Of a stretch of DNA of 64,000 bases, positions 24,443 to 49,633 are shown piece by piece. Both the position numbers and the translations under genes were made by a program. Location: contig CANRFY010000006.1 of the NCBI GenBank assembly GCA_947630015.1, forward strand, positions 13,481 through 77,480, in the 5' to 3' direction. Within the stretch, counting starts at the first letter, position 1. Each line of letters starts with the position of its first letter. This stretch comes from an uncultured Clostridia bacterium (GTDB taxonomy: Bacteria > Bacillota > Clostridia > Oscillospirales > CAG-272). The notes beneath the pieces are model-generated. The model saw only the letters and a program-made list of their open reading frames with translations, was not told where the DNA came from and did not search any database.

Positions 24443-24464
24443 AAGCGCCTCCATTTCTACAGTT

Positions 24465-24588
24465 ATTATATCATTATGTCGGAAAACTGTCAATCCAAAA
24501 TGGAAACATTTTTGTCTTTTTCGAAAAAAGTTGTTGACAAAATGGGGCGACTGTGGTATTATAGTCTTGTCCCCATTATGGAAACATT
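24465..24588. promoter_or_regulatory. divergent lysis/lysogeny switch: two consensus promoters plus repeated operator-like motif
   Basis: Minus strand: TTGACA(24493-24488)-17-TATAAT(24470-24465). Plus strand: TTGACA(24534-39)-17-TG-n-TATTAT(24557-62). ATGGAAACAT occurs near 24500 and near 24578, the first inside CAAAATG-gaaa-CATTTT. Confidence 0.65.
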
Positions 24589-24602
24589 GAAAGGAGGCTA
24601 TC

Positions 24603-24848
24603 ATGACAAATACGAACAAGCTCAAGGGACGAATGGTCGAAAACGGGTACACGCTTTCGGGACTCGCAGAAGCTCTAAACATCTCCCGCCCTGCGTTGCG
24701 CAAGAAAATAAACGGCTCGACCGACTTTAAGGTAAGCGAGATCGAGAGTTTATGTTCTGCGTTGAAAATCGACAGGAAAGAGATAACAGACTTTTTTTTC
24801 GCTGATGATGTCCCCATTTTGGAACGTATTGCAAACACCGCTCACTAA
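24603..24848 (+). CDS. Cro/antirepressor-type HTH protein
   Basis: 81 aa; MVENGYTLSGLAEALNISRPALRKKINGS; AAAGGAGG RBS; first rightward gene. Confidence 0.75.
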   Translation: MTNTNKLKGRMVENGYTLSGLAEALNISRPALRKKINGSTDFKVSEIESLCSALKIDRKEITDFFFADDVPILERIANTAH

Positions 24849-32155: not shown

Positions 32156-33535
32156 GTGGACAATGTTAATGACCGCAACAACAAAATCGTGTATCTGCCG
32201 ACGGACGTGCTTGTGCCGCATCCGCACAATCCGCGCACTGATCTCGGAGATCTGTCAGAGCTCGCGGACAGTATCAAGAAGGTCGGAGTGCTGCAAAACC
32301 TCACCGTCGTAGACAACGGGGACGGCAAGTATACCATCATCATCGGGCATCGCAGGACGGCAGCAGCGCTCATAGCGGGAGTTAAAACAGTCCCGTGCGT
32401 CATCGTTGACATGACGCCTGCGGAGCAGATGAGAACAATGCTGCTCGAAAATATACAGCGTTCCGATCTGACGGTATACGATCAGGCACGCGGCTTTCAG
32501 ATGTTAATAGAGCTTGGCGACAGCGTAGACACGATCTCGGACAAGACGGGCTTTTCGCAGACTACGGTGCGCCGCCGCTTGAAGATGATGGAACTCAACC
32601 AGGACAAGCTGAAAGAAGTCTCGTCGCGTCAGATCTCACTGACAGATTTCGACCGACTTGCAGAGATTGAAAGCCTCGAGAAACGGAACGAAGTTCTCGA
32701 ATCAATCGGTACGAATAACTTTGAGCAGAACATTACATGGGCGCTGAAACAGCAGACGATAGGCAAAAACCTGCCCCTTGCCAAAGCGGAGATAATAAAA
32801 CTCAAAGCACGTAAGATAGAACTCCACGATACATGGGGCGGTAAGTATGAGCAAGTCGTCGCCTCGTCCAGTATCGCAGAATGGAATCCGGGCGACGAGC
32901 TCGTTCCGGCCGACGTGATCCGAAGCGGAAAGCAGCTCTATTATGTGCTCGATGAGAAATACGGTCGGGTGAGCTTCTATACAGAACGCAAACGGGCAAA
33001 TCCGGTGAAGCGTCCGCAGAGCGAGATCGACCGCGAGAAGTATATAGCTGACACGCGCGAGAAATTAGAGGCGTTGTCGACGACGGCGAACGAGCTACGC
33101 AGGAATTTCGTTTCTCGGTCGAGGCTGACGAAAGCGAATGAACGGCTGATGCTTGACGGCGTCGTAAATGCCGTCATGCTATCGTATGACAAGTACTGTA
33201 GCTCGGGACGTGGCGAGCTGGTCATGCTTCTCGGCATGGAATGGGATTACGGACATGCCGATGAAAGCGATGCGAAGATGCGCGACTCCGTGAACGCAAA
33301 TTACGAAAAGTGCGTGCCGACGATCATTTACAGCGCATTCGGGAACATGGATTTCGAGCGCTTCTACACACGATATTCCGGCGCATTCCCGGAGTATCAG
33401 AAAAACAAAATGTTGACCGCCGTGTACGACTGGCTCGTGTCGGTCGGATATGAGATGTCGGACGACGAGCGGATGCTTTACGACGGCACACACCCGCTGT
33501 TCGTGGATAAGGATAAGGAGGATGGCAGCAAATGA
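32156..33535 (+). CDS. ParB/Srx-fold N-terminal domain protein
   Basis: LVPHPHNPR...GVLQNLTVV...IIIGHRRTAAAL (canonical GxRR); GTG start with an AAGGAG RBS. Confidence 0.8.
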   Translation: MDNVNDRNNKIVYLPTDVLVPHPHNPRTDLGDLSELADSIKKVGVLQNLTVVDNGDGKYTIIIGHRRTAAALIAGVKTVPCVIVDMTPAEQMRTMLLENIQRSDLTVYDQARGFQMLIELGDSVDTISDKTGFSQTTVRRRLKMMELNQDKLKEVSSRQISLTDFDRLAEIESLEKRNEVLESIGTNNFEQNITWALKQQTIGKNLPLAKAEIIKLKARKIELHDTWGGKYEQVVASSSIAEWNPGDELVPADVIRSGKQLYYVLDEKYGRVSFYTERKRANPVKRPQSEIDREKYIADTREKLEALSTTANELRRNFVSRSRLTKANERLMLDGVVNAVMLSYDKYCSSGRGELVMLLGMEWDYGHADESDAKMRDSVNANYEKCVPTIIYSAFGNMDFERFYTRYSGAFPEYQKNKMLTAVYDWLVSVGYEMSDDERMLYDGTHPLFVDKDKEDGSK

Positions 33536-35346
33536 GCGCAGGATCATCAATCGCTCCGGCTTCGATGGGCGAAGAGTTTTTCCCGACGCCGCGGGAGCTG
33601 ATCGACAAAATGCTTTCCGGGCTTGACTTTGCGTTCATTAACACAGTTTTGGAGCCGAGCGCGGGCAAGGGAGATATTGTTGAGAGATTGCTTGAAAAAG
33701 ACTATATGCCTTGGGGGGCATCCGACAATCGCTTCCGCCACATTCGCTGCGTTGATTGTGTTGAGATTAATCCGGAACTGAGGAGCATTCTCAGATACAA
33801 TTACGGCGACGGGAGGGCAAGCAAAGCTCAGACTGTACTACGCCAAATCAAAAAAATAGAAGATGAGCGCTCCCTGACAAGCGCAGAAAAAATGATGGAG
33901 AACGATGCCGCAAAGCAACGCGGTTTCGCAACGTCAGGCGTCGTTCATGTGGTCTACGATGATTTTCTCCGGTACGAGCCATTCAAAGAGTATGACCTTA
34001 TAATCATGAACCCGCCGTTTTCCGAGGGAGACAAGCATCTCATAAAGGCGATAGAAATACAGAAAAACGGAGGCGCGATCGTCTGTCTGTTGAACGCAGA
34101 AACGATTAAGAATCCGTACACAAACCAGAGGCAGCACCTTATCAAGCTGTTGAATGAGTACGGAGCCGAAATCAGATACATTCAAGGCGCGTTCGATCAT
34201 GCCGAAAGACGTACAGACGTAGAGGTGGCACTTGTAAAAATAGCTATACCGCGCAGGATCGCTGAGAGCGAATTTTACGAGCGCATGAAAAAGGCGGAAC
34301 ATATAGACGACGAAAGCTTTGCCTCAGCTTCAACGGACGTTGATGTGACGGACTACATAAAATCCGCTGTGGCACATTATCGAGTGGAAGTCAAGGCAGG
34401 CATAGAACTTATTCGACAGTTCAGAGCGCTTAAACCGTATATGAGAAGTTCTTTTGACGAAAAAGAGACCGGTACAATACTCCGTCTTACGGATTCGTGC
34501 GACAGAGGATATGATGACGTATCTGTCAACAGCTATGCGTCAAAGACAAGGCTCAAATACTGGAGAGCGCTGCTCTCAAATCCCAAATTCGTCGGCAAGC
34601 TGACAAGCAAATTGCAGGAAGAATACCGCAGAAAAGTTGACCGACTGCAAGAATATGACTTCAACGAGTTTAACATCGAGGCGCTTTCGGTGCAAATCAT
34701 GTCAGAGGTGCGGCGCGGGATCGAGGAAGAAATAGCGGCCATGTTTGACCGTCTTTCCGCTTCTCACAGTTGGTACGGCGACGATTCGACTAACCGTCAT
34801 TATTACGATGGATGGGCGACGAACAAGGCATGGAAAATCAACAAAAAAGTCATATTGCCGTGCTACGGAGTGTTTAGCGAGTGGAGCGGACGTCCTGAAG
34901 TATATAAAGCGGTTGACGTTCTGTCGGACATCGAGCGCATTTTCAATTTCTTCGATGGCAAAATGACTGCCGACGTCGATCTTGCAATGACCTTGAAAGA
35001 TAATTTTGCAGCCGGGATTACGAGAAACATTCGGTGCAAATTCTTCGAGGCGACGTTCTACAAAAAAGGGACCGTCCACATCGTGTTTTCGGATATGGAG
35101 CTTCTCGAACGCTTCAACATATACGCAGCGCGAAACCGCGGATGGCTGCCGCCGTCCTACGGCAAAAAGAAATATTCCAATCTGACTGACGATGAAAAGA
35201 AAGTCGTCGACAGTTTCCAGGGCGAGGCGGCGTACGAAAAAGTCGTCGCAAGAGCCGACTATTATCTCTCTACTGCTGTCAGCGGATATCTGGCAGACTC
35301 AGAATTAAGAACAGAAGGAGCAAAGAATGAAATTCAAACAGATTGA
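33532..35346 (+). CDS. orphan N6-adenine DNA methyltransferase with large C-terminal extension
   Basis: Motif I VLEPSAGKGDI and motif IV IIMNPPFS; no cognate endonuclease gene nearby. Confidence 0.8.
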   Translation: MSAGSSIAPASMGEEFFPTPRELIDKMLSGLDFAFINTVLEPSAGKGDIVERLLEKDYMPWGASDNRFRHIRCVDCVEINPELRSILRYNYGDGRASKAQTVLRQIKKIEDERSLTSAEKMMENDAAKQRGFATSGVVHVVYDDFLRYEPFKEYDLIIMNPPFSEGDKHLIKAIEIQKNGGAIVCLLNAETIKNPYTNQRQHLIKLLNEYGAEIRYIQGAFDHAERRTDVEVALVKIAIPRRIAESEFYERMKKAEHIDDESFASASTDVDVTDYIKSAVAHYRVEVKAGIELIRQFRALKPYMRSSFDEKETGTILRLTDSCDRGYDDVSVNSYASKTRLKYWRALLSNPKFVGKLTSKLQEEYRRKVDRLQEYDFNEFNIEALSVQIMSEVRRGIEEEIAAMFDRLSASHSWYGDDSTNRHYYDGWATNKAWKINKKVILPCYGVFSEWSGRPEVYKAVDVLSDIERIFNFFDGKMTADVDLAMTLKDNFAAGITRNIRCKFFEATFYKKGTVHIVFSDMELLERFNIYAARNRGWLPPSYGKKKYSNLTDDEKKVVDSFQGEAAYEKVVARADYYLSTAVSGYLADSELRTEGAKNEIQTD

Positions 35347-37140: not shown

Positions 37141-37820
37141 AGCCGATATTATTCAACAGTGAGATGGTACGCGCGATACTCGACGACCGAAAGACGGCGA
37201 CAAGACGGGTGATTAAGCCGCAGCCGCTTTTCTTCACAGGAAGAAAATATATCTTTGCAGATGATGAAATTCCTAAGAAGTGGAAGGATTGTGACGATTT
37301 CGTTGGGACGTATCAATATCAGCCCGGCGATATCCTTTATGTGCGTGAGACGTTCGGCTACTCTGCATATGCTGCATGGGACGGTATAACGTATTACAGA
37401 GCAGACGCAGACGACGAAACAGAGCGAATTGTCAAAGCAGGAAGTGGTTGGCGCCCCTCAATACATATGCCGAAAGAGGCAGCGCGGATATTTCTGCGCG
37501 TCAACAAAGTGCGCGTAGAACAATTACAGGATATTGATGAAGATGGCGTAATAGCCGAGGGAGCAGAACCGCTGATAGTATGTTCTCGTGAGCATGGTAT
37601 CTATTATCCCGAAGGTGGTGCAGAAATGTGTTGGAATGTTCATACATGCTCAAATTGCCCTATATTCAAAAGCTATCCCGAATTGTTCGGAGAAAAAGTG
37701 TGGAATCGAACCGTTAAATCGGCTGATCTTTCACGTTACGGATGGGACGCAAATCCCTTTGTATGGGTGACCGAGTTTGAGCGGATAAGCAGAGAGGAGG
37801 CGCACAAAAATGGACACTGA
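37137..37820 (+). CDS. ASCH/PUA-like domain protein
   Basis: N-terminus ILFNSEMVRAILDDRKTATRR...PGDILYVRE...WRPSIHMP matches the ASCH pattern (compare YqfB ...ILAGRKTITIR). Confidence 0.6.
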   Translation: MKPILFNSEMVRAILDDRKTATRRVIKPQPLFFTGRKYIFADDEIPKKWKDCDDFVGTYQYQPGDILYVRETFGYSAYAAWDGITYYRADADDETERIVKAGSGWRPSIHMPKEAARIFLRVNKVRVEQLQDIDEDGVIAEGAEPLIVCSREHGIYYPEGGAEMCWNVHTCSNCPIFKSYPELFGEKVWNRTVKSADLSRYGWDANPFVWVTEFERISREEAHKNGH

Positions 37821-38712
37821 CAAAGAAAAACGCGCGATTGAATATCTCCGCACGTTTGAACCGCAGACAGAGCCGTATTATCTCTGCTACAGCGGAGGAA
37901 AAGACAGTGATTGCGTTCGCATACTCGCGGCACTTGCGGGCGTCAAGCACGAAATATGGCACAATCACACGACCGCCGACGCGCCCGAAACGGTCTATTA
38001 TGTGCGGTCAATACCGGGAATACATATCAGCTACCCCGAAAGAACTATGTGGCAGCTCATTGTCGACGAAATGTTCCCGCCGACGCGTCAAGCGCGGTAT
38101 TGTTGCGCAAAACTGAAAGAGCGCGGCGGACGCGGACGCGTAAAAATAACTGGAGTACGGTGGGCGGAAAGCAAAAACAGACGAGACAACGCGGGACTTG
38201 TGAGGATCAACGGGAAGCCGAAAAAAAGCGCAAAGACAGCCGCAGACGCTGGGGCGAAATTCATGATCTCGCCGAAAGAGAACGGAATTATTATGAACAA
38301 CGATAACGCCGAGACGCGAAAAGTAGTAGAAATGTGTTATCGAACAACGTCAACGACAATAAATCCGATCGTAGATTGGACAGACGCGGACGTCTGGGAG
38401 TTTCTGCATCATTACGGGTGCGCGTCAAATCCGTTGTATCAATGCGGCAGAAAACGAATCGGTTGTATCGGCTGCCCGTTGCAGAGCGACGCAGGAATGA
38501 AGCGAGATTTTCAAGAATATCCGAAATATCGTCAAATGTATGTTCACGCGTTCGACCGTATGATTGCAGCGCGGGAGGCGGCGGGAAGAATTAAACCCAA
38601 AGAAATCGAATGGACGGACGGCGAACACGTTATGAGATGGTGGGTCGGTGACGACGCGAGACAAATAACCGTTGACGATATCAACGCAATCGATGCATTA
38701 GATCATAACTGA
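37810..38712 (+). CDS. PAPS-reductase/DndC-like PP-loop protein
   Basis: PP-loop CYSGGKDS; C-terminal Cys cluster CGRKRIGCIGCP. Confidence 0.8.
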   Translation: MDTDKEKRAIEYLRTFEPQTEPYYLCYSGGKDSDCVRILAALAGVKHEIWHNHTTADAPETVYYVRSIPGIHISYPERTMWQLIVDEMFPPTRQARYCCAKLKERGGRGRVKITGVRWAESKNRRDNAGLVRINGKPKKSAKTAADAGAKFMISPKENGIIMNNDNAETRKVVEMCYRTTSTTINPIVDWTDADVWEFLHHYGCASNPLYQCGRKRIGCIGCPLQSDAGMKRDFQEYPKYRQMYVHAFDRMIAAREAAGRIKPKEIEWTDGEHVMRWWVGDDARQITVDDINAIDALDHN

Positions 38713-38723
38713 AAGGAGATTTT

Positions 38724-39428
38724 ATGAAACCTATATACAAACCGAAAGGCGCCGCAAAAGAATACGGCGATTACGCGCTCAACATTTACACGGGGTGTCC
38801 GCATAGATACTATTACTGCTTCGCTCCGCTTACTCTGCATTGCGACAGAGAAAAATTCCATTCGCATGTCGAGCCGCGTAAGAACATCGTCAAGGAAACG
38901 CGGAAACAAATCGAGCGCGAAGGAATAACGGGCAAGCTAATACATCTGTGCTTTGCGTGTGACCCGTACCCGATCGGATATGACACGTCGACAACGCGTG
39001 AGATAATAGAGCTGCTCAAAGACAGCGGAAATCATGTGCAGATACTCACAAAGGGCAACGGAGAACGCGACTTTGATTTGCTCGACGGTAATGACTGGTA
39101 CGGTATAACGTATTCGGGCGCAGAGGCCTGCCAAGAGATAGATGCTTTGTACCCCGCGTTCAGACGGCGAAGTTTAGAGAAAGCTCGGGAAAAGGGGATT
39201 AAAACGTGGATTTCCTTCGAGCCGGTGCTTGATGCTTACGAAGTGTTCCACTGGATCATCGAGTATCACGACATCGTTGACACTGTAAAAATCGGCAAGC
39301 TGAATTATTTCCCGTCGGATATAGACTGGAAGTCGTTCGGACGGGAGGCGGAAAGACTGTGCAAAAAATACGGTCTTGACTACTACATCAAAGACAGCCT
39401 GCGTGCAGAAATGGGAGAAACATTGTAA
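38724..39428 (+). CDS. radical-SAM-like (SplB/COG1533-type) protein with degenerate cluster motif
   Basis: ALNIYTGCPHRYYYCFAP aligns with the ..N.Y.GC.HGC.YCYA pattern, but the middle Cys is Tyr. Confidence 0.6.
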   Translation: MKPIYKPKGAAKEYGDYALNIYTGCPHRYYYCFAPLTLHCDREKFHSHVEPRKNIVKETRKQIEREGITGKLIHLCFACDPYPIGYDTSTTREIIELLKDSGNHVQILTKGNGERDFDLLDGNDWYGITYSGAEACQEIDALYPAFRRRSLEKAREKGIKTWISFEPVLDAYEVFHWIIEYHDIVDTVKIGKLNYFPSDIDWKSFGREAERLCKKYGLDYYIKDSLRAEMGETL

Positions 39429-39696: not shown

Positions 39697-39981
39697 ATGA
39701 CAAGAAATCAGATCCTCGACGCAGCGAAACTCTGCGTTTCAGATGAACGAGAAAAAACATATGGCTCGCCGGAAAACAATTTTGAATGTGCAGCGCAAAT
39801 GATAAGCGGGTACCTGGGATATCCGGTTGATGCAGCGGACGTGGCAATCATACTCGCGCTCGTCAAGATATCGCGCATGACGAGCGGCGTCAATATTACC
39901 GACAACTACATAGACCTTGCGGGGTACGCGGCGATTGCGGGAGAACTCACGACGGACGACAGAAGTGGAGACGCGACATGA
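39697..39981 (+). CDS. conserved hypothetical phage protein
   Basis: AAAGGAG RBS; 94 aa. Confidence 0.55.
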   Translation: MTRNQILDAAKLCVSDEREKTYGSPENNFECAAQMISGYLGYPVDAADVAIILALVKISRMTSGVNITDNYIDLAGYAAIAGELTTDDRSGDAT

Positions 39982-40859: not shown

Positions 40860-41232
40860 CGATGCAACATACCCGTGCAACAAATGTCCGAAAAAAAGTC
40901 ATTGCGACAGAAAAACGTGTGCTGAATGGCAGAAATGGTTTTGCCCGAAATGGGCCGAAACGCGGAGAATGCTGTGCGAACGGCTCCACTATAAGTTAGC
41001 TGAGCGCGACGACGATATCAACGACTTCGCTCACCGCCTGAGAATACTCCGTGTCAGAGCGGGACTGTCGCAGCGCGTACTCGGCGAAATATCGGGGGTA
41101 AAGCAGGACCTGATATCCCGCCTCGAACTGGGAGTAAGTCAGCCGAACGCCGACGTAGCCGAATCGCTTGCGAAGCCGTTAAAAGTGTCGTCTGCATATC
41201 TGCTTACCGGGGAACGACGAAAAATTTTGTAA
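40846..41232 (+). CDS. Cys-rich N-terminus + XRE-type HTH protein
   Basis: CNKCPKKSHCDRKTC...; RLRILRVRAGLSQRVLGEISGVKQDLISRLELG. ATG at 40846 has GGAGG 8 nt upstream. Confidence 0.6.
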   Translation: MSNRDDATYPCNKCPKKSHCDRKTCAEWQKWFCPKWAETRRMLCERLHYKLAERDDDINDFAHRLRILRVRAGLSQRVLGEISGVKQDLISRLELGVSQPNADVAESLAKPLKVSSAYLLTGERRKIL

Positions 41233-41340
41233 CTCTTGTTCAAAAATAGTGAGACACGCTTGAAAAAGTGTGATAACATATAAGCGGGTCTCAACGAAGT
41301 CCTATACTCCGCCCGGCGCCGCAGCGGGTAATCTGCGGCG

Positions 41341-41414
41341 GCTGTTGCAGAGGTGGCTCCTATGCCAAGGTCTGACGCGTGGCAGCGCCGTAGGTTCGAC
41401 TCCTACCAACAGCA
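41341..41414 (+). ncRNA. tRNA-like element (74 nt) with intact acceptor and T-arm but non-canonical D and anticodon regions
   Basis: GCTGTTG...GTAGG-TTCGACT-CCTAC-CAACAGC-A. I could not draw a cloverleaf D-arm or a 5-bp/7-nt anticodon arm. Confidence 0.4.
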
Positions 41415-41538
41415 AAACCCGTCCGCGCGCGCCTGGTGTGTTGGTGTGATTAATGTGTTAAGGCGCGGTTGCCGACGACATCTGCTCAGGCGTAAAAGGG
41501 TGTCCGCTTATATACTGCGGCAGCAGGATGTCAACGAA

Positions 41539-41573
41539 CGGGGGAGCGGCAGCTCCCCCGTCACTATTTTCTT
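41539..41573 (+). terminator. terminator-like hairpin in front of the late activator gene
   Basis: cgggggagc-ggca-gctcccccg followed by tcactattttctt. Confidence 0.45.
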
Positions 41574-41592
41574 CGAAGGAGCAGCGATAGCA

Positions 41593-42000
41593 ATGACTGT
41601 ACGCGAATTGAGCAGGCTCTACTACCTGAATAAGCTGATCGACCGCAACACTGAACAATTGGCAAAGCTTGAAGCGCAGTTGCAGCCCGGCTGTCAAGAG
41701 ATAACGGGAATGCCGCGAAATCCCGTATATGCGAAAAGCACCGTAGAAGAAATAGTTATTCAAGTCGACGATTTAAGGAAACGCATTCAAAAAGAGCAGA
41801 TCGAATATCTGCGCGAAAGACGGCGAATCGAGAAATATATATCCTCGGTCGAGGACTATCAAATCCGTCTGATTATGTTGCTGCGTTTCGTCGACCTGCT
41901 CACATGGACGCAGGTGGCGCAGCGCATCGGCGGGAACAACACCGAGGACAGCGTGCGAAAAGCGTGCAACAGATTTTTGAAAAAATCTGCGAAATCATGA
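41593..42000 (+). CDS. late-gene transcriptional activator (RinA/ArpU/sigma-region-4-like)
   Basis: MTVRELSRLYYLNKLI...coiled N-terminus and C-terminal HTH (LTWTQVAQRIGGNNTEDSVRKACNRFLKK); located just before the packaging genes. Confidence 0.6.
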   Translation: MTVRELSRLYYLNKLIDRNTEQLAKLEAQLQPGCQEITGMPRNPVYAKSTVEEIVIQVDDLRKRIQKEQIEYLRERRRIEKYISSVEDYQIRLIMLLRFVDLLTWTQVAQRIGGNNTEDSVRKACNRFLKKSAKS

Positions 42001-42067
42001 TATGTTGTCCGATATGTCCGCTTTTTCTCGAATATAATGCTATCGTAAAATTCTAAATAATTGCCAG

Positions 42068-42105
42068 CCGCCCGGCGGGTCTTCCCACCGGGCGGTATTC
42101 TTATC
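42068..42105 (+). terminator. hairpin + U-rich tail after the activator gene
   Basis: ccgcccgg-12nt-ccgggcgg followed by tattcttatc. Confidence 0.45.
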
Positions 42106-42207
42106 GGGAGGAGGAGCATCACTGCAATGTCGCTCCTTGCATTGCAGTATTACATCAAAGGCGCCTGAACGCCAACAGTGCGCCGAAAATAAAGGAGGAG
42201 ATACCAA
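42106..42207 (+). promoter_or_regulatory. structured 5' leader of the transporter cassette (unclassified)
   Basis: 9-bp hairpin actgcaatg/cattgcagt whose loop (gctcc) can pair with upstream ggagc; second stem ggcgc/gcgcc abuts the AAAGGAGGAG RBS. Confidence 0.3.
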
Positions 42208-43584
42208 ATGTACGGTATCATTGTTCTCGCCGTATATACGGCGGTTATGATCGGGGTGACGCTGATCTTTTCCCGTAAAAGCAGCGCCGCCGAGGACTTC
42301 CACGTCGCGGACCGCAAACTCGGTACATGGCAGGCTGCTATGAGCATCGCGGCGACGTGGATATGGGCGCCTGCTCTTTTTACGTCTGCGGAAAAGGCAT
42401 ATACTAACGGTCTGCCGGGATTGTTTTGGTTTCTCGTCCCGAATGTAGCGTGCCTGATTATGTTTGTGCCGTTCGCAAAGCGCATTCGCAATAAGATGCC
42501 CGACGGCGTAACGCTGTCGGACTATATGGCGTCAACGTATCATTCGGAGAAGGTGCGAGGGGTCTATCTCGGGCAGCTTTCGCTTCTCTCCGTGCTGTCG
42601 ACGGGCGTGCAGCTGCTCGCCGGCGGCAAAATCTTGTGTACGATCACGGGGATTCCCTTTTGGGCAGTAACGATAATCCTCGCCGTGATCGCATATTCGT
42701 ACTCTCAGTTTTCCGGCATAAAAGCATCGGTGCTCACCGATTCCATGCAGATGATTTTGATGCTTGCGGCCTGCGCGGTATTCGTACCGTGGGCTCTTGC
42801 TAAGGGCGACGGCATGACAAATCTTATCAACGGCATAGGCGGCGTATCGGGCGAGTTTTCTAATCTGTTCGACAGCAACGGACTGTCAGTGCTGCTCTCC
42901 TTCGGAATCCCGACAGCGATAGGACTTATAGCCGGACCGTTCGGAGATCAGTGCTTTTGGCAGCGTGCTTTCTCGATCAGACGTGAGAAGATACGCTCGG
43001 CGTTTATCATCGGAGCGCTGCTGTTCGCCGTAGTACCCCTCTCCATGGGTCTGCTCGGTTATATTGCCGCGGGATCGGGATATGTCGCCGAAGACGCGGG
43101 TGTAGTCAACTTTGAGCTCATTTCTCATCTGTTCCCGAAATGGGCGATGCTCCCGTTTTTGTTCATGGTCGTGTCGGGTCTGCTGTCGACGGTCGACAGC
43201 AACATGTGCGCAGCGGCGTCGCTCACAAATGATTTCGGGGCAAGTCTGAAAACGGCGAAAGGCTCTATGATCGTCGTCCTGCTGCTCGGCATCGGTATCG
43301 CAAATACACCGGGGCTGACTGTGACTCACCTGTTCCTGTTCTATTGCACGCTCCGCACGACAACGCTACTGCCGACAGTCATGACTCTTATGGATCGTAA
43401 GCTTTCGGCGAACGGAATATTCTATGGCATTCTCTCGTCGGCAGTCGTGGGACTGCCGATATTCGCCGCCGGCAATATCGTCGGCAGCGCCGTACTCAAA
43501 ACGGTCGGCAGTCTCGCAACTGTGCTCATCAGCGGCATCGTGGCGGTCGTCGTCTCGAGGAAGGGGGCGGCATCATGTCAGTGA
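42208..43584 (+). CDS. sodium:solute symporter (SSS) family-like transporter
   Basis: 458 aa; many hydrophobic segments; N-terminal pattern FHVADRKLGTWQAAMSIAATWIWAPALFTSAEKAYTNG. Confidence 0.8.
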   Translation: MYGIIVLAVYTAVMIGVTLIFSRKSSAAEDFHVADRKLGTWQAAMSIAATWIWAPALFTSAEKAYTNGLPGLFWFLVPNVACLIMFVPFAKRIRNKMPDGVTLSDYMASTYHSEKVRGVYLGQLSLLSVLSTGVQLLAGGKILCTITGIPFWAVTIILAVIAYSYSQFSGIKASVLTDSMQMILMLAACAVFVPWALAKGDGMTNLINGIGGVSGEFSNLFDSNGLSVLLSFGIPTAIGLIAGPFGDQCFWQRAFSIRREKIRSAFIIGALLFAVVPLSMGLLGYIAAGSGYVAEDAGVVNFELISHLFPKWAMLPFLFMVVSGLLSTVDSNMCAAASLTNDFGASLKTAKGSMIVVLLLGIGIANTPGLTVTHLFLFYCTLRTTTLLPTVMTLMDRKLSANGIFYGILSSAVVGLPIFAAGNIVGSAVLKTVGSLATVLISGIVAVVVSRKGAASCQ

Positions 43585-44360
43585 AATATCTCGGGCGTAA
43601 GCAGTCTATAAGCAACGATGCGTGGCTCGAAGCTATGGCGCACATAGAGGAAACCGTCAGCAGATCGGAGATAGAGGAACTAAGCGCAAAGACCGTTGAC
43701 GCAATCAAGAACGTCGTCGGGGATAAGAAAGCCGCATACGCATGGAGCGGCGGCAAGGACAGCATCGCTCTCGGCAAAATATGCGAAGACGCCGGGATCA
43801 GCGACAGCATGATGGGCGTCTGCGATCTCGAATATCCTGCGTTCATGGCGTGGGTCAGCGACAATAAGCCTGCGGGATGCGAAATCATCAATACGGGCGT
43901 CAATATTGACTGGCTGGCGAAAAACCTTGATATGCTGTTCCCGCAGAAAAGCGACAAAGCCGGAAGATGGTTTGCCATCGTGCAGCACAAAGCGCAGCGC
44001 GAATATTTCAAGCGGCACGATCTCGATATTATGCTGCTTGGCAGACGCCGCGCCGACGGGAATTACACCGGGCAAGGCAACATGTATACCGACGGTAAGG
44101 GCGTGACGAGATACAGTCCTCTTGCGGAATGGAAACACGAGCATGTGCTCGCGTATATCCATTACAACGATCTCCCCCTCCCACCGATATACGAGTGGCG
44201 AAACGGATATTTGTGCGGCACGCATCCGTGGCCGGCGAGGCAGTGGACGGGGAACGTCGAAAACGGATGGCGGGAAGTATATGAGATAGATCCGTCGATC
44301 GTCGAAAACGCAGCGCAGAAAATCGAGAGCGCTCGTCACTTTCTTGAAGAAAGGGGGTGA
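43575..44360 (+). CDS. PAPS-reductase/DndC-like PP-loop protein
   Basis: PP-loop AYAWSGGKDS; overlaps the transporter stop by 10 nt. Confidence 0.8.
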   Translation: MSVKYLGRKQSISNDAWLEAMAHIEETVSRSEIEELSAKTVDAIKNVVGDKKAAYAWSGGKDSIALGKICEDAGISDSMMGVCDLEYPAFMAWVSDNKPAGCEIINTGVNIDWLAKNLDMLFPQKSDKAGRWFAIVQHKAQREYFKRHDLDIMLLGRRRADGNYTGQGNMYTDGKGVTRYSPLAEWKHEHVLAYIHYNDLPLPPIYEWRNGYLCGTHPWPARQWTGNVENGWREVYEIDPSIVENAAQKIESARHFLEERG

Positions 44361-45007
44361 TAAGCGTGAAGATAGTCAAGCGAAAGCTAAGTGAGCTTAA
44401 AAATCCGGAAAAGAACGTTCGCAGGCATACGCCGAAGCAGATAGACGAATTCATTCGGTCTATAAAGATGTTCGGTCAGATACGGCCGATAGTCATAGAC
44501 GAGAACGACGTCATTCTCGCAGGAAACGGTCTGCATGAAGCTCTAATAAAAAGCGGAGCGGAAGAGGCGGACTGCTATATTGCGTCCGGTCTGACGGAGA
44601 ACGAAAAGAAGAAACTCATGCTCGCCGACAACAGGATATTCGATCTCGGCGTCGACGACATAGACGTATTCGATCAGATAATCGCCGAGCTCGAAGGAGA
44701 CCTCGATATCCCCGGATATGACGATGATTTCCTCGAATCTCTCATCATGGACGATGCAGAGACGACCGAGGCGTTGTCCGAATACGGACGGATAGACGAG
44801 AGCGATGCCGAACGGATGCGCAGCGCGGCGACGACGTACGATACAGCCGCCGAGCAAAGACCTGCTCCGACATTCGAAGCGCCGGCGGCATCAGTCTCGG
44901 GCGAAATTCCTTCAACGGCTCCGGTGCCATATTCACAGCCGGCAAGCGCCAATGACGGCAGACCGTATGTGATATGCCCGAAATGCGGTGAGCGGATATG
45001 GCTGTAA
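44357..45007 (+). CDS. ParB/Srx-fold protein with C-terminal zinc ribbon
   Basis: LSELKNPEKNVRRH...IRPIVIDENDVILAGNGLHEAL; CPKCGERIW. The start could instead be the GTG at 44366. Confidence 0.7.
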   Translation: MISVKIVKRKLSELKNPEKNVRRHTPKQIDEFIRSIKMFGQIRPIVIDENDVILAGNGLHEALIKSGAEEADCYIASGLTENEKKKLMLADNRIFDLGVDDIDVFDQIIAELEGDLDIPGYDDDFLESLIMDDAETTEALSEYGRIDESDAERMRSAATTYDTAAEQRPAPTFEAPAASVSGEIPSTAPVPYSQPASANDGRPYVICPKCGERIWL

Positions 45008-46149
45008 AACGTATTCGCTCTGATATGGACGTGGTGACGGCAGCAAAGAAGCGCATCATCAACGCGTTTTCGAACGGCGTGATCGTCTACATGTCCTTCT
45101 CCGGGGGAAAAGACAGCTTGTGTCTTGCGGAGCTCGTCTACGAGCTCATAACCTCGGGCAAGATCGACGCCTCGCTTCTCGTCGTCATTTTCGTCGACGA
45201 AGAAGCTATTTTCCCCTGCATCGAGGAAACGGTTAAAGCATGGCAAAGAAAATTCCTGCTGGTGGGTGCCCGATTTTGGTGGTTATGCCTTGAGGTTAGA
45301 CATTTCAACTGCTTCAACCAGCTCACCGCAGACGAATCCTTCATCTGCTGGGACCGAACAAAGTCAGACGTGTGGATAAGGCGTCCGCCTGCATGCGCGA
45401 TCAGAACGCATCCGGCGCTGAGGCCGCGCGAGGACACGTATCAAATGTTCCTGCCGCGGGCGACACGGGACGGCATAATGATCTCAGGCGTCAGAGCGTC
45501 CGAGTCCGTCCAGCGGCTTCAATATATGGCAGCGCTCAACATGGGTGCAAAGGGTATCACGGGAAATCGGCAGATATATCCCATCTACGACTGGAAGACC
45601 AACGATGTATGGTTGTTCCTCAAAGACACGGGCGTAGAGATACCCGACATCTACATGTACATGTGGCAGGCGGGGATCGGGAAAGGGCAGCTCCGCGTGT
45701 CGCAGTTTTTCTCGTCCGACACAGCCTCATGCCTTGTGCGGATGAACGAATATTACCCAGATCTGATGGAACGCGTCATAAGGCGCGAGCCGAACGCATA
45801 TCTCGCGGCTCTCTACTGGGACAGTGAGATGTTCGGCCGTTCGACCAAGAATCGAAAAGCTCTCGAGGGCAAGGACGACCGCGACTATAAAGCGGAATTG
45901 ATCGACATGATCATAAAGCATCCGAGTGACTATTTCCACACAGATCATCAGAAGCACGTAGCAGAACGATACCGTCGAGTCCTTATAAAAGTAGACGGCA
46001 TGGCGCGTCCCCGCGACTATCGCAAGATGTATGAGGCGCTTATCGCGGGCGACCCGAAGCTGCGTACGTTACGTGCGATATATCAGGACGTAGCATGCTC
46101 ATACGCAGAGTATAGCAGGCGCTTCCGGAAAGGAGGCGCAAATGGCTGA
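44998..46149 (+). CDS. IbrA-like PAPS-reductase-family PP-loop protein
   Basis: PP-loop YMSFSGGKDS; 383 aa with a long C-terminal extension. Confidence 0.75.
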   Translation: MAVKRIRSDMDVVTAAKKRIINAFSNGVIVYMSFSGGKDSLCLAELVYELITSGKIDASLLVVIFVDEEAIFPCIEETVKAWQRKFLLVGARFWWLCLEVRHFNCFNQLTADESFICWDRTKSDVWIRRPPACAIRTHPALRPREDTYQMFLPRATRDGIMISGVRASESVQRLQYMAALNMGAKGITGNRQIYPIYDWKTNDVWLFLKDTGVEIPDIYMYMWQAGIGKGQLRVSQFFSSDTASCLVRMNEYYPDLMERVIRREPNAYLAALYWDSEMFGRSTKNRKALEGKDDRDYKAELIDMIIKHPSDYFHTDHQKHVAERYRRVLIKVDGMARPRDYRKMYEALIAGDPKLRTLRAIYQDVACSYAEYSRRFRKGGANG

Positions 46150-46660
46150 TGTATTCGCACCGCTCTCCACGCTGCAATGGGTAGACCGCGATCTGCTCAA
46201 GCCGAACGATTACAACCCGAACAAGGTGAGCCGGGAAAACTTAAAGCTGCTGACTCAATCCATTATGACAAACGGATGGACGCTGCCGATAGTCGTACGC
46301 CCGGACTACACCATCATAGACGGATTCCATCGCTGGACCGTAGCAGGAGAAGAACCGCTTAAATCAACCCTTGGCGGGAAAGTCCCGGTCGTGATCGTAG
46401 ACCATAAGGACGAAGCCGAAGACATATACGGCACAGTGACGCATAATCGCGCACGAGGAACACATCTGCTCGAGCCTATGAAAGCTATCGTAAAGAGATT
46501 GCTCGACGAAGGAAAGAGCGTAGACGAGATAGGAAAGCAGCTCGGCATGAAACCCGAGGAGATATTCCGTCTGTCGAGTTTCTCGCGTGATGATTTCCTC
46601 GCGATGATGTGCAAAGGCGTCACGCATTACAGTAATGCGGAGATGCTTGCGAAATTGTGA
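46142..46660 (+). CDS. IbrB-like ParB-fold protein
   Basis: LLKPNDYNPNKV...WTLPIVVRPDYTIIDGFHRW. Confidence 0.75.
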   Translation: MADVFAPLSTLQWVDRDLLKPNDYNPNKVSRENLKLLTQSIMTNGWTLPIVVRPDYTIIDGFHRWTVAGEEPLKSTLGGKVPVVIVDHKDEAEDIYGTVTHNRARGTHLLEPMKAIVKRLLDEGKSVDEIGKQLGMKPEEIFRLSSFSRDDFLAMMCKGVTHYSNAEMLAKL

Positions 46661-46963
46661 GCCGAGAGACGCACACATGCGCTCACAGCGCACGAAACGT
46701 CGTAGGCAGGTTGACGCTCGACCGACATGTTTCGTGGCGAATGAGAGCGTTGCAACGCGCGTCACGAACTCGTCAAGGTACTGTGACGCGTTTTGAAACG
46801 AGTGCGGGCTCGTTGACCCCAAAATGCACGTAGTTTGGATATAAAAATCGGGTACTTTAATTGAAAAATAGATTAAAGTGGGCGGGGATAATGTGTCAAA
46901 GAGCGTGATGGGTGGCTGGGACCCATGACACATATGCGGGAGAAATCTCACATATCACGCAAA

Positions 46964-47026
46964 GCTGTCGTAGCTCAGATGGCAAGAGCCGTATTAGGTG
47001 CGCGAGTTCAAGTCTCGCCGACAGCA
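46964..47026 (+). ncRNA. tRNA-like element (63 nt) lacking an anticodon arm
   Basis: GCTGTCG-TA-GCTC-AGATGGCAA-GAGC-cgtattaggtgc-GCGAG-TTCAAGT-CTCGC-CGACAGC-A. Only 12 nt occupy the space where about 22 nt (anticodon arm + variable loop) are expected. Confidence 0.45.
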
Positions 47027-47052
47027 TAGACAGGGACGAAAGGAGTGCAAAG

Positions 47053-47673
47053 ATGGCAAAAGCAAAGGCGATAGCCGAGATAAAAGACAATGCGGTGTAC
47101 GTCTTACAAGCCGGCACACCGACGTACGTCAAAACCGCTGATATCTGCGCCATGACGGGAAAGACAAATCAGTGGATCGGGCAGCTCGTAAGTCAAGGCG
47201 TCCTCTCGAAAAAACAAACGGCGCACGGTGCATTATTCGAGCTGACGTCGACCGTGAGAGCGTACTGCAACATGCTCGAGTCGAGAGGGAGCGAGAGCCC
47301 GGAAGAACAGGCACAGGAAAAGGCGCGCCGCTCGGCCGATCTCGCTCTTAAAAAAGCGAAAGCAACGATCGCGGCGATCGAGGCAAAAGAACGCTCCGGA
47401 CAGATGCACCGTTCGGAAGATGTTGCGGCTATGACCGAAGATCTGATACTGTTTATTCGCAACTCCCTGCTCGCGCTGCCGGGGCGGCTTGCTATCGACA
47501 TAACCTCTGCGAATGATTCGGCGGAAGTTGAAACTGTCATTAAGAGCGAGGTGTGCAAAATCCTCGAGGAGCTGTCAAATTACAGATATGATCCGTCGAA
47601 ATACAAGGAGAGGGTACGCGCGCGGCTCAACCTCTCCCCGGACAACGATCTGAACGACTATGAAGAAATCTGA
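47053..47673 (+). CDS. terS: terminase small subunit (Nu1-like HTH)
   Basis: N-terminal HTH VKTADICAMTGKTNQWIGQLVSQGVL; AAAGGAG RBS; overlaps terL. Confidence 0.7.
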   Translation: MAKAKAIAEIKDNAVYVLQAGTPTYVKTADICAMTGKTNQWIGQLVSQGVLSKKQTAHGALFELTSTVRAYCNMLESRGSESPEEQAQEKARRSADLALKKAKATIAAIEAKERSGQMHRSEDVAAMTEDLILFIRNSLLALPGRLAIDITSANDSAEVETVIKSEVCKILEELSNYRYDPSKYKERVRARLNLSPDNDLNDYEEI

Positions 47674-49633
47674 CGAGGAACGACGCCGCCCGGCAGATGA
47701 ACGCCGCGATTCCGACGCGAAGCGCCTCAACGCCGCAATATCGAAGACGCTCGCTCTGGCGAAGCCTCCCGAAAATCTCACCGTATCTGAATGGGCGGAT
47801 AAAAAAAGGCGTCTGTCACCCGAAAGCTCCGCAGAGGTCGGCATGTGGAGAACGAGCCGCACGCCGTATCTCAAAGAGCCGATGGACTCCTTCACGGACC
47901 CAAAAGTACATCATATCGTGATAGTTTCCTCGTCGCAGGTCGGAAAGTCAGAGACGATAAACAACATCATCGCCTATATCATAGACCAAGACCCGGGCTC
48001 GATATTATTTATTCATCCGACGACGATAGACGCAAAAGAATATTCTAAACTGCGAATAGCGCCGATGATACGCGATTGTAAGTCGCTGCGGTCGAAGGTA
48101 GCCGACCCGAAAAGCCGCGATTCTGCGAACACTATCCTGCAAAAGACATATCCCGGCGGCATTCTTACGATGTGCGGTTCGACCGAGGCTCACGCTCTCG
48201 CTTCTAAGCCGATAAGATATGTACTCGGAGACGAGCGCGACAGATGGGAAACGTCGGCGGGAAAAGAGGGCGACCCGTGGAGTCTTGCTATGGCGCGTCA
48301 GATCACATTCTACAACGCGAAATCCGTTGAAGTGTCCACGCCCACGATAAAAGGGGCGAGCGCCATTGAAAAATCGTATGCGCTCGGCACACAGGAGCGA
48401 TGGGAAACGAGATGCCCTCACTGCGGCGAATATAACGAGATCGTATTCGACAACATCAGATTCGAGAAAGAGGAAGGAAGTCTCGGAGACGAGAAGACAT
48501 ACAAAATCACGTCTCTGTACTATGTGTGCCCGTCCTGCGGCGGTATTTCGACGGAATCGGAAATGAAGCGTCAGCCGTCAAAATGGACCGCATATAATCC
48601 GGACGCATACGAGCGCAACGGTACACGGTCGTTTTGGTTGTCGTCGTGGGTCTCTCCGTGGGCGTCGTGGGAATCAACGATCCTGCTCTATCTGCAAGCT
48701 CTCGGCGACTCAAAGAAGCTGCAAGTCGTATATAACACACGGTTCGGTCAGTTATGGGAAGATCGCGGTGACATCGAAGATGAGGACAGCGTCATGGCGC
48801 GGCGCGAGGAATACGAAGCGGAGCTCCCGGATGGCGTATTGTGTCTTACGTGCGGCGTCGATACTCAGGACGACCGCCTTGAATATGAGATCGTGGGGCA
48901 CGGTCATTTCGGCGAAACATGGGGCATCAAAAAGGGTATTATCATCGGACGTCCCGACTCTCAGGCAACGTGGAACGGTCTTGACGAAGTGATAAATCAC
49001 ATATACAGATTCAAAAACGGTATAGGACTCCCGGTATCAATGACGTTCGTTGATGAAGGCGGTCATTTCACGCAGGAAGTACGGTGGGCGTGCCTCGCGC
49101 GTCAGGGGAAAAAGGTATTCGCCATCAAGGGACGCGGCGGCATGGATATCATGTTTACGTCGCCGCCGAAGAAGCAAAAAATCATGGTGAGCGGCACGGT
49201 GCTCGGAACGTGCTGGGTATTCGAGATAGGCGTCGACGCCGGGAAAACGCTTATTATGGATAATCTGAGAGTAAAAACGGCAGGACCGAAGTATTGCCAT
49301 TTCCCCCGCAATGGCGATTACGGCGCAGCATATTTCCGAGGGCTCTTGTCCGAGCATCTTGTGTACAAGGAGAAAAGCAAAAATCGGTGGCAGTGGGAGA
49401 AGATACCCGGGCACGAGCGAAACGAAGCTCTCGACTGCCGAAACTATGCTCTTGCGGCTGCGAAAGCGCTTTCGCCCGACTATGATATGCTCGAACGTAA
49501 AATCAGAACGGCGAAGCCGGGAGCAAAACCCGCCGGGCTTATTCCGTCGCCCAAGAACAGCACGACTGCGGCAGCAAAAGCTGATACGGCGCCGGCGCGA
49601 AAAAGCAGGAACAATTTTTACGATGAATGGTAG
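47660..49633 (+). CDS. terL: terminase large subunit, lambda GpA family
   Basis: 657 aa; SEWADKKRRLSPESSAEVGMWRTSRTPYLKEPMD...SSSQVGKSE (Walker A). Confidence 0.9.
   Translation: MKKSDEERRRPADERRDSDAKRLNAAISKTLALAKPPENLTVSEWADKKRRLSPESSAEVGMWRTSRTPYLKEPMDSFTDPKVHHIVIVSSSQVGKSETINNIIAYIIDQDPGSILFIHPTTIDAKEYSKLRIAPMIRDCKSLRSKVADPKSRDSANTILQKTYPGGILTMCGSTEAHALASKPIRYVLGDERDRWETSAGKEGDPWSLAMARQITFYNAKSVEVSTPTIKGASAIEKSYALGTQERWETRCPHCGEYNEIVFDNIRFEKEEGSLGDEKTYKITSLYYVCPSCGGISTESEMKRQPSKWTAYNPDAYERNGTRSFWLSSWVSPWASWESTILLYLQALGDSKKLQVVYNTRFGQLWEDRGDIEDEDSVMARREEYEAELPDGVLCLTCGVDTQDDRLEYEIVGHGHFGETWGIKKGIIIGRPDSQATWNGLDEVINHIYRFKNGIGLPVSMTFVDEGGHFTQEVRWACLARQGKKVFAIKGRGGMDIMFTSPPKKQKIMVSGTVLGTCWVFEIGVDAGKTLIMDNLRVKTAGPKYCHFPRNGDYGAAYFRGLLSEHLVYKEKSKNRWQWEKIPGHERNEALDCRNYALAAAKALSPDYDMLERKIRTAKPGAKPAGLIPSPKNSTTAAAKADTAPARKSRNNFYDEW

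Follow-up and report, generated by a model that had tools for sequence, protein, structure and literature searches.

IbrA and IbrB, encoded on an island of Escherichia coli ECOR-9 and by many phages, pair a protein containing the PF01507 and PF11922 domains with a ParB-like partner. Genes of this type are already known and biochemically unexplained, and in phage genomics they usually carry the label of PAPS reductase or cysH auxiliary metabolic genes (AMGs). A PP-loop ATPase of the PAPS-reductase superfamily is likewise combined with a ParB-fold partner in DndB/DndC (SspD, BrxP). An adjacent ParB-like protein is needed for activity on double-stranded DNA by 5mYOX (PMC13229309) and in the DpdA/DpdB pair (cited in PMC12839542). 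Here we analyzed a cassette of five genes in a prophage located within a 64,000-nucleotide stretch of DNA, hereafter the window, from an uncultured Clostridia bacterium (contig CANRFY010000006.1, positions 13,481 to 77,480 of the forward strand). The cassette encodes a transporter of the sodium:solute symporter type (SSS), two PP-loop proteins (PAPS1 and PAPS2), and two ParB-like proteins (ParB1 and ParB2). The results presented below support the view that these five genes constitute one conserved, translationally coupled unit, and the linkage of its transporter to the enzymes is essentially obligate.

By sequence comparison, PAPS2 and ParB2 are true homologues of IbrA and IbrB, with 28% identity over 322 aa between PAPS2 and a phage IbrA (E 5e-26) and 38% identity between ParB2 and a phage IbrB (E 5e-31). 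As in the described pairs, which are phage-borne and often located near terminase genes or genome ends, the two genes are adjacent, follow the same order, and overlap (by 8 nt in the window). Unlike IbrA/IbrB, the cassette adds ParB1, which is strictly coupled to PAPS2, an optional PAPS1, and a dedicated transporter. An earlier note on this DNA, made from its letters alone, had described the proteins as both Dnd-like and Ibr-like; the Ibr part of that description stands, whereas the resemblance to Dnd is weak, since PAPS2 scores 19.9 bits against the 290.4-bit cutoff of the DndC family (TIGR03183), has no conserved Fe-S cysteine triad, and is not accompanied by DndA (cysteine desulfurase), DndD, or DndE among the prophage open reading frames (ORFs) scanned with Pfam, PHROGs, and PADLOC. 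The cassette further differs from Dnd in having no restriction partner and in containing a transporter. A PADLOC scan of nine prophage proteins detected none of the BREX type 4 partners BrxC, PglZ, and BrxL. The 5mYOX/ParB and DpdA/DpdB pairs share the functional logic proposed below, a ParB-like partner beside a DNA-modifying enzyme, but the enzymes there are a dioxygenase and a transglycosylase, whereas the cassette has a PP-loop ATPase and two different ParB-like proteins.

A closely similar locus in a named phage is gp35-gp38 of the Faecalibacterium phage FP_Taranis, together with that of its inducible relative Pioen, where a RinA-like activator, a leader RNA, a transporter, the ParB1-PAPS2-ParB2 triad, and terS/terL follow one another. 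The IbrA-like protein of FP_Taranis (phrog_2302) shows 43% identity, and this phage differs from the window in having a 333-aa mini-transporter and no PAPS1. Published descriptions of Faecalibacterium phages do not discuss these genes in Taranis or Pioen. A full-text literature search turned up no work on the function of IbrAB-like or PAPS-reductase/ParB cassettes of phages, no mention of transporter linkage, and no description of the triad, its transporter coupling, the mini-transporter family, or the leader RNA; the earlier note, too, knew of no described Dnd/Ibr-type system with a dedicated SSS transporter.

Organization and conservation of the cassette

The cassette consists of the following genes:

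42208-43584, + strand: SSS, symporter ORF, PF00474
43575-44360, + strand: PAPS1, PP-loop ORF, PF01507
44357-45007, + strand: ParB1, ParB-like ORF, phrog_620
44998-46149, + strand: PAPS2, IbrA-like PP-loop ORF, PF01507
46142-46660, + strand: ParB2, IbrB-like ParB ORF, PF02195

These ORFs lie exactly where the earlier note had placed them, with successive overlaps of 10, 4, 10, and 8 nt, and contain the motifs it had read in them (AWSGGKDS, GNGLHEA, CPKCGERIW, FSGGKDS, and DGFHRW). Its domain calls were confirmed by Pfam and PHROG profile searches (PF00474, PF01507 twice, PF02195, and phrog_620), and, as it had said, there are no terminator-like sites on the + strand at the cassette junctions.

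Searching IMG/VR with SSS recovered homologues in at least 163 viral contigs at 59-76% identity, and the order SSS-(PAPS1)-ParB1-PAPS2-ParB2 is kept in every fetched SSS locus with enough downstream DNA. The PAPS2 search returned 274 contigs; among the 80 closest loci, SSS is present whenever at least 3.2 kb of upstream DNA is available, with two exceptions. Loci L111 and L150, in which PAPS2 has no adjoining SSS, represent different or rearranged contexts and were set aside as uninformative. PAPS1 was found in 269 contigs, and in the 61 informative loci, i.e. those with enough upstream DNA, SSS lies directly 5' of it in 58 and the mini-transporter in the remaining 3, a transporter of either type thereby preceding PAPS1 in 61 of 61 loci. 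In GTDB, taken as one genome per species, the transporter is encoded in 99 genomes, essentially all of which retain the cassette if they provide enough DNA. Judged from their record titles, nearly all of these genomes belong to Clostridia (Oscillospiraceae, Ruminococcaceae, Lachnospiraceae, Anaerotruncus colihominis DSM 17241, Agathobaculum, Flavonifractor, Acetatifactor muris, and one Clostridioides difficile); one contig of a metagenome-assembled genome is labelled Bacteroidales. The neighbourhood survey proposed in the earlier note thus finds the transporter/PP-loop/ParB linkage in related prophages of both collections.

The junction overlaps, counted across distinct junction sequences, are conserved as well. 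ParB1 and PAPS2 overlap in 136 of 137 junctions (always at -10 nt), SSS and PAPS1 in 128 of 135, PAPS2 and ParB2 in 133 of 148, and PAPS1 and ParB1 in 66 of 137. PAPS1 is missing from ~12% of cassettes and ParB1-PAPS2-ParB2 is constant, so this triad is the core of the cassette and PAPS1 is optional. The transporter subfamily represented by SSS is seen almost only beside the triad. Hundreds of independent contigs show this order, which places the arrangement far outside what chance would produce, and the conserved order and overlaps bear out the suggestion that the genes form one unit. That unit is not the duplicated pair that had been suspected, because the PP-loop proteins are only remotely related (22% identity between PAPS1 and PAPS2, E 0.004) and ParB1 and ParB2 have no BLAST similarity to each other; it is instead a triad with an optional further PP-loop protein.

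The triad families phrog_620, phrog_2302, and phrog_2159 also occur in FP_Taranis and in phage vB_RanS_PJN03; in the latter, they stand directly before terS/terL without a membrane protein. Microcystis phage Mwe-JY13 has a ParB-ParB-PAPS gene arrangement, judged from annotation and Pfam, and the E. coli phage that encodes the IbrA and IbrB compared above has this pair only. Two accessories, PAPS1 and the transporter, are restricted to the gut-Clostridia phage group, and ParB1 is an extra ParB-like subunit.

One contig encodes a 524-aa protein (P0168) in which the N-terminal two-thirds of a ParB1 homologue is joined in frame to a PAPS2 homologue. The PAPS2 part has an internal deletion and no PP-loop; P0168 was rejected as a natural ParB1-PAPS2 fusion and is probably a deletion derivative.

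The transporter and its replacement by a second type

SSS (458 aa) matches PF00474 over residues 31-351 (E 4e-24; 85.6 bits against a 22.8-bit cutoff) and, over its full length, phrog_20720 (E 9e-176), a PHROG without assigned function. Across 72 homologues, 143 of the 458 residues are at least 97% conserved. The named NCBIfam subfamilies score far under their cutoffs (PanF 71 against 328 bits, PutP 65.5 against 515.5 bits, and ActP 32 against 1099 bits), PanF being the best full-length match. The nearest solved structures are DUR3 (E 2.7e-14, in two segments that extend across the protein) and CHT1 (E 2.7e-11, over the full length). By these profile comparisons, SSS is a LeuT-fold cation/solute symporter of a phage-specific subfamily, with DUR3 and CHT1 as its nearest characterised relatives.

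The substrate site of AtDUR3 (PMC11840088) was mapped onto SSS through the HMMER alignment. SSS keeps the Trp-x-Trp of transmembrane helix 1 (W93 and W95 in AtDUR3; W51 and W53 in SSS) and the two acidic proton-coupling residues (D312 and E402; D247 and D330). The DUR3 pocket is otherwise only partly conserved: T98 and N305, which form hydrogen bonds to urea, are replaced by A56 and L240, the gate and urea-bonding residue Y315 by F250, and W338 of the Trp dyad (transmembrane helix 7) by F273. Thus, unlike DUR3, the shorter phage protein has hydrophobic residues in the urea-bonding positions. SSS is probably a DUR3-like, proton-coupled carrier whose predicted aromatic/acidic pocket is unlikely to bind urea. 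An amine or an organic cation would be our guess for the substrate; yeast DUR3 takes up polyamines too.

In FP_Taranis, the place between the leader and ParB1 is occupied by gp35 (L155, 5326-6327), a polytopic protein of 333 aa that has no Pfam or PHROG family. It belongs to a mini-transporter family of at least 866 proteins of ~330 aa (including P0241-P0360; L366, L372, L381), which are always found beside ParB/PAPS genes. Some of the gene calls continue into ParB or PAPS domains, and the adjacency is therefore general. The AlphaFold (AF2) model of gp35 (pLDDT 85.6, pTM 0.85) has ~10 helices, and its best PDB match is CHT1, an SSS-family choline transporter (TMq 0.64, E 9e-5), followed by other LeuT-fold carriers. 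The mini-transporter is thus predicted to be a minimal LeuT-fold transporter closest to CHT1. BLASTP detected no similarity between SSS and the Taranis membrane protein, and hhalign of SSS against the mini-transporter gave a long collinear but statistically weak alignment (probability 2-6%, E 0.006-0.026), so that a relationship between the two would be visible only in the predicted fold.

Both transporter types are found with and without PAPS1, and in the three PAPS1 loci that have no 458-aa SSS the mini-transporter stands in its place and overlaps PAPS1. Because two very different transporters fill one slot, transport appears to be functionally tied to the enzymes; this is the strongest evidence for such a tie and argues for selection on transport. 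Other "phage" matches of SSS, at 23-26% identity on virome contigs in GenBank, were discarded, as the two contigs examined, out of eight such matches, carry ordinary SSS genes of 512-523 aa without a cassette.

The PP-loop proteins

PAPS2 matches PF01507 with 42.9 bits against a 22.5-bit cutoff and phrog_2302 with E 9e-86. In its FSGGKDS motif, F34, S35, G37, K38, D39, and S40 are invariant and G36 is nearly so, and the motifs G-x-R-x-x-E-S-x-x-R and P-I-Y-D-W are also conserved. PF11922 (DUF3440) was not matched by PAPS2 at E<=0.01 in Pfam, whereas the phage IbrA itself matches it at 4.7e-33; the BLASTP alignment of the two proteins extends ~90 residues into the DUF3440 domain of IbrA. A search of PDB with the single PAPS2 sequence gave no matches, and the profile search gave generic PP-loop matches only. 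With the AF2 model (pLDDT 76.7), Foldseek matched human FAD synthase at the top, and also NcsA, TtuA, APS/PAPS reductases, TilS, GMP synthase, LarE, and CysD; the C-terminal helical domain had no Foldseek matches. The only defence-database matches of PAPS2, both weak and both to DNA-backbone enzymes, were obtained with PADLOC for BrxP (E 1.3e-9) and DndC (E 1e-7 over ~55 residues). Taken together, the sequence and fold comparisons identify PAPS2 as a PP-loop enzyme of the IbrA-like kind, either an ATP pyrophosphatase or an adenylyltransferase, whose C-terminal domain is helical.

PAPS1 scores above the Pfam cutoff for PF01507 and belongs to phrog_424; its SGGKDS PP-loop (AWSGGKDS in the window) is invariant. 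Its profile matches to CysH structures are weak and confined to the nucleotide-binding core, and the C-terminal catalytic cysteine of ECGLH is absent. A "CGxH" of PAPS1 that resembled this catalytic motif was rejected, since it aligns to the internal GYxSxGDxHT motif of CysH and not to ECGLH. PAPS1 can accordingly be classified, on its motifs, as a PP-loop ATP-pyrophosphatase-fold protein of the PAPS-reductase superfamily without the CysH catalytic cysteine. The NCBIfam scores for CysH/APS-reductase are 18-34 bits against cutoffs of 154-254 bits.

Since the PP-loops are invariant and PAPS2 has the PP-loop fold, both enzymes are judged catalytically intact from their motifs. Three near-invariant cysteines of PAPS2 (C97, C105, and C117) had suggested an Fe-S thiolase; this idea was abandoned, as they are lost in Taranis (V105 and T117), L015 (T117), and L043 (A97), leaving PAPS2 without any invariant cysteine across the family. 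The lack of conserved cysteines argues against persulfide or Fe-S sulfur transfer. By analogy with TilS, GMP synthase, FMN adenylyltransferase (FMNAT), and CysD, an amination-type or adenylyl-transfer reaction would be left for PAPS2.

The ParB-like proteins

ParB2, an IbrB-like protein of the ParB/Srx fold, scores above the cutoff for PF02195 and matches phrog_2159 (E 9e-71); 77 of its 172 residues are at least 97% conserved, and its motifs DGFHR and HNRARGTH are common to IbrB. ParB1 belongs to phrog_620, "ParB-like" (E 2e-44), has no Pfam matches above cutoff, and matches the ParB-like N-domain of a type II methyltransferase model (MTase_II, E 1e-13). Its domains are, in order, the ParB-like N-domain with GNGL at the site of the Arg-rich box (GNGLHEA in the window), an acidic/low-complexity or disordered linker, and a C-terminal CPxCG element. 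The CPKCGERIW segment, earlier taken for a ribbon, retains two conserved cysteines only (C207 and C210) rather than a full four-cysteine ribbon, and the Pfam zinc-ribbon match is under cutoff. Both proteins match ParB-like N-domains that are fused to DNA methyltransferases (phrog_498; MTase_II). No HTH_ParB was matched in ParB1 or ParB2 by Pfam, the TIGR00180 scores are under cutoff, and a ParA partner was not found. The two proteins thus do not look like ParB of the chromosome- or plasmid-partition type (CTPase clamp).

Leader RNA and position in the late operon

The 208-nt region upstream of SSS and the genes flanking the cassette contain the following features:

41353-42000, + strand: late-regulator-like gene, ArpU/RinA-type (phrog_36, E 1.7e-18)
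42033-42038, + strand: promoter-like -10 element TATAAT, with no good -35
42045-42058, + strand: conserved box GTAAAATTCTAAAT, 3' of the -10-like element
42067-42104, + strand: GC-rich hairpin (42067-42096) followed by a U-rich tract, from RNAfold
42099-42210, + strand: structured leader RNA, from the covariance model and RNAalifold
42106-42116, + strand: GGAGG-rich leader element GGGAGGAGGAG
42121-42148, + strand: leader hairpin H2, with CUCC (CUCCUU) in the loop
42160-42184, + strand: leader hairpin H3, with a ACGCCAAC loop
42194-42198, + strand: Shine-Dalgarno (SD) sequence GGAGG, before the ATG at 42208
46912-49633, + strand: terS (phrog_57) and GpA-type terL, from Pfam and PHROG searches

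The cassette is the first block of the prophage late operon. Its late timing is deduced from its location between the RinA/ArpU-like regulator and terS and from the promoter and terminator in the leader. The packaging module terS/terL lies directly 3' of it, as the earlier note had reported; the true terS start is probably near 47050. The phrog_36 regulator directly 5' is context and not a cassette member; its homologues hold the same position in many related loci, and in Taranis this gene carries the annotation of a RinA-like activator. In the Lachnospiraceae-type locus L031, the cassette again lies directly before terS-terL-portal, in this case of unrelated families (phrog_1889, phrog_2, and phrog_12). 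Because the terminases of L031 and Taranis are unrelated to those of the window, the position of the cassette is conserved across different packaging machineries.

The GTAAAATTCTAAAT box and the -10 element are conserved in diverged loci and in Taranis, and the segment 42033-42058 may represent a late promoter that requires an activator, and a -10-like pause element may be part of it. The segment 42067-42104 looks like an intrinsic terminator inside the leader; nearly all related leaders have a hairpin and T-run in this position, with stems that differ in sequence. The covariance model of the leader gave 34 matches in 1.25 Mb of loci, every one ending at the transporter start codon, and these include Taranis-type loci (e.g. 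L155 5130-5328), where the same leader architecture precedes the mini-transporter. RNAalifold and pair counts support both leader hairpins. In a plain MAFFT alignment, 89% of cells are paired, compensatory changes occur in 9 of 11 pairs, and none of 500 shuffles attains the observed score; in the covariance-model alignment, which is fitted to the model, the values are 92% and 10 of 11. In several groups, the CUCC element and the SD region are complementary and covary (CUCCUUU with AAAGGAG, UCCUCCA with UGGAGGA).

The leaders of L031 and related Lachnospiraceae-type loci (~130 nt 5' of the SSS start) are simpler, with a clear TTGACG...TAAAGT promoter, the GTAAAATTCTAAAT box, the terminator, and then a single hairpin formed by pairing of CUCCUUCG and the SD (CGAAGGAG). 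Since SD sequestration is present even in these loci without the longer leader, it appears to be general.

We read this region as a late promoter that depends on an activator and is closely followed by a terminator, similar to lambda PR'/tR', combined with translational gating of the transporter. We regard the leader as a candidate for a new cis-regulatory RNA, with antitermination, a translational switch or riboswitch, or both as its possible modes of action. Rfam gave no matches at gathering thresholds in the whole window and chance-level matches only at E<=10 in 41200-42400, and a known riboswitch that would reveal the transporter substrate was rejected on this basis. A leader peptide was likewise rejected, as the short ORF in the leader of the window is not conserved in related leaders.

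Proposed function and alternative explanations

We tentatively favour the reading of the cassette as a module expressed late that modifies DNA with an imported co-substrate and in which the activating step would be a PP-loop adenylation; we consider this quite possible, while stopping short of calling it probable. The DUR3/CHT1-like symporter would import a small solute from the gut lumen, at a guess a small nitrogen-containing compound or an organic cation. ParB1 and ParB2 would bring PAPS2 onto double-stranded DNA, and PAPS2 would spend ATP (to AMP and PPi) in adenylating either a DNA position or the imported compound so that both can be joined. PAPS1, if present, might perform a second ATP-dependent activation step on the imported compound. 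Phage DNA would be modified shortly before or during packaging, and the purpose could be evasion of host restriction or defence, or an aid to packaging. This model would be the most economical one, because the unit is obligatorily linked, translationally coupled, late, and catalytically intact and combines methyltransferase-type ParB domains with an importer. The connection to DNA is drawn because both ParB-like proteins match ParB domains of methyltransferases, PAPS2 weakly matches BrxP and DndC, and 5mYOX and DpdA need ParB partners; what we infer from these observations is the DNA target itself, the role of the imported solute as a co-substrate, the type of reaction, and its purpose for the phage. 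A fuller version, in which these phages import a small metabolite of their environment, at a guess an amine or organic cation, through their own symporter and attach it covalently to DNA by PP-loop adenylation, guided by two ParB-like proteins, with the leader gating transporter translation and maybe sensing a ligand, seems rather unlikely; its chemistry would resemble that of TilS or the activate-then-displace logic of thymidine hypermodification.

Several observations weigh against a DNA-modification module fed by an importer. The pocket residues are not common to both transporter types, as judged from the hhalign alignment and the translations, which gives no ground for assuming a common substrate. 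Many phages have IbrA/IbrB-type genes but no transporter, from which it follows that the core chemistry needs no imported compound. E. coli IbrAB have been described as co-activators of prophage (eib) gene expression, not as modification enzymes. ParB1 has no Arg-rich nucleotide-binding box, ParB2 shows faint matches to ParB/Srx proteins of the SerK serine-kinase type, a fold that allows small-molecule kinases, and FAD synthase as the top structural match of PAPS2 is a reminder that enzymes of the PAPS-reductase fold can be small-molecule adenylyltransferases. Finally, no analysis made here points to the transporter substrate or to the enzyme target.

The last of these similarities lead to the main competing explanation, a small-molecule activation pathway without covalent DNA modification, in which the imported metabolite would be phosphorylated by a ParB/Srx-fold protein and adenylylated by a PAPS-reductase-fold enzyme, yielding a nucleotide-activated compound or cofactor for decoration of the virion or cell envelope, for signalling, or for anti-defence. 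The FMN adenylyltransferase domain of human FAD synthase and CysD among the PAPS2 matches, the kinase-type matches of ParB2, the constant location of PAPS1 beside a transporter, and the presence of vitamin and choline importers in the SSS family, with PanF as the best full-length NCBIfam match, all speak for it. These matches are, however, generic to the fold and far under family cutoffs, ParB1 and ParB2 resemble DNA-methyltransferase-associated ParB domains much more strongly, the triad is found without any transporter in other phages, and the position before terS is conserved; we regard this pathway as unlikely, though worth keeping in view. Less still can be said for phosphorothioation or another sulfur insertion into the DNA backbone of the Dnd/Ssp/BrxP type, with sulfur supplied by host IscS or NifS and ParB2 acting like DndB. 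The weak PAPS2 matches to BrxP and DndC (including TIGR03183), the thiolases NcsA and TtuA among its structural matches, and the DGxHR motif of ParB2, which DndB carries as well, would fit, but the 19.9-bit DndC score, the loss of the three cysteines in Taranis, L015, and L043, the cassette's lack of a cysteine desulfurase, DndD, and DndE, and an SSS importer with no obvious role in sulfur delivery make it improbable.

An equally improbable explanation holds that IbrAB-like proteins are late-transcription co-activators or helpers of the terminase at cos/pac sites, and that the transporter is an unrelated moron, i.e. an AMG. In its favour, annotations call IbrA/IbrB co-activators of prophage gene expression, many unrelated phages have IbrA-like genes close to terminase genes or to the ends of their genomes, and the cassette stands between a late regulator and terS. 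The moron part, which the earlier note had offered as its alternative, is refuted by the essentially obligate linkage: the transporter subfamily hardly occurs away from the triad, overlaps the next gene in ~95% of loci, is replaced in the same slot by a second transporter type, and is not missing from related prophages. In addition, the invariant PP-loops argue for catalysis over pure DNA binding. The usual annotation, sulfur-assimilation AMGs, draws on the PF01507 matches and on PHROG and published names (PAPS reductase, cysH), but the NCBIfam scores for CysH, APS-reductase, and CysD are 10-20 fold under cutoff, PAPS1 has no ECGLH cysteine and PAPS2 no invariant one, and the proteins are paired with ParB-like proteins and have a canonical SGGKDS PP-loop, whereas that of true CysH is degenerate. 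We consider this annotation very improbable, and neither CysH-type sulfate reduction nor Dnd-type Fe-S chemistry is supported.

PAPS-reductase-like genes are among the most often reported AMGs of gut phages and are routinely read as sulfur metabolism; for the large group considered here, the evidence speaks against such a reading. Transporter and enzymes form a widespread and tightly integrated unit that heads the packaging operon in hundreds of phages of gut Clostridia, whose hosts are major members of the human and animal gut (Oscillospiraceae, Ruminococcaceae, Lachnospiraceae, and Faecalibacterium). If an imported compound is indeed placed on DNA, this would represent a new class of phage DNA modification and a new PP-loop enzyme chemistry, a DNA hypermodification with a donor taken from outside the cell, and the first biochemical role for the long-unexplained IbrAB family, and it would link the availability of gut metabolites to phage infectivity. 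Cassette-bearing prophages reside in the cultured strains Anaerotruncus colihominis DSM 17241 (NZ_CP102255.1, ~781-795 kb), Agathobaculum desmolans ATCC 43058, and Acetatifactor muris DSM 23669; these lysogens and the inducible phage Pioen, which represents the mini-transporter type, make the module directly testable.

Other features of the prophage

The surrounding element is a prophage with genes for an integrase, repressor, Sak4, SSB, RusA, and the regulator, followed by packaging and structural genes; its G+C content is ~50%, compared to ~62% for the adjoining host DNA. The G+C content falls from 0.60-0.64 to 0.43-0.55 at ~21-24 kb of the window, and the tyrosine integrase (21849-22913, minus strand) and repressor (23894-24838) genes both lie at this drop. 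Because of this coincidence, the left prophage boundary is probably located there.

A third PP-loop protein of the PAPS-reductase family (37810-38712; PF01507 E 9e-16), which contains a CxxxxxCxxC cluster and is only remotely related to PAPS1 and PAPS2, is followed after 12 nt by a radical-SAM-like protein (38724-39428) with weak matches to the PA0069/Rv2578c and "radical SAM mobile pair B" families. Some related loci have either of these genes 5' of the cassette as well, and the two may form a second nucleic-acid-directed system.

A tRNA-like match at the start of the regulator ORF (41341-41414) scored 22.4 bits against the 29-bit Rfam gathering score (E 0.07) and is probably due to chance; ARAGORN found no tRNA anywhere in the window. 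The 94-aa DUF6378 protein at 39697-39981 (E 2.7e-26) falls into phrog_474 and phrog_1167, annotated as "phosphofructokinase", an implausible name for so small a protein.

A third ParB gene (32156-33535) encodes a canonical-looking protein of 459 aa with ParB_N and HTH_ParB domains. It overlaps by 4 nt the gene of a 604-aa protein that has a methyltransferase-like N-terminal region and DUF4942 (32156-35346 region), and a similar ParB is encoded close to an N-6 DNA methylase in Taranis. This is a further pairing of a ParB-like protein with a DNA modifier in the same phage.

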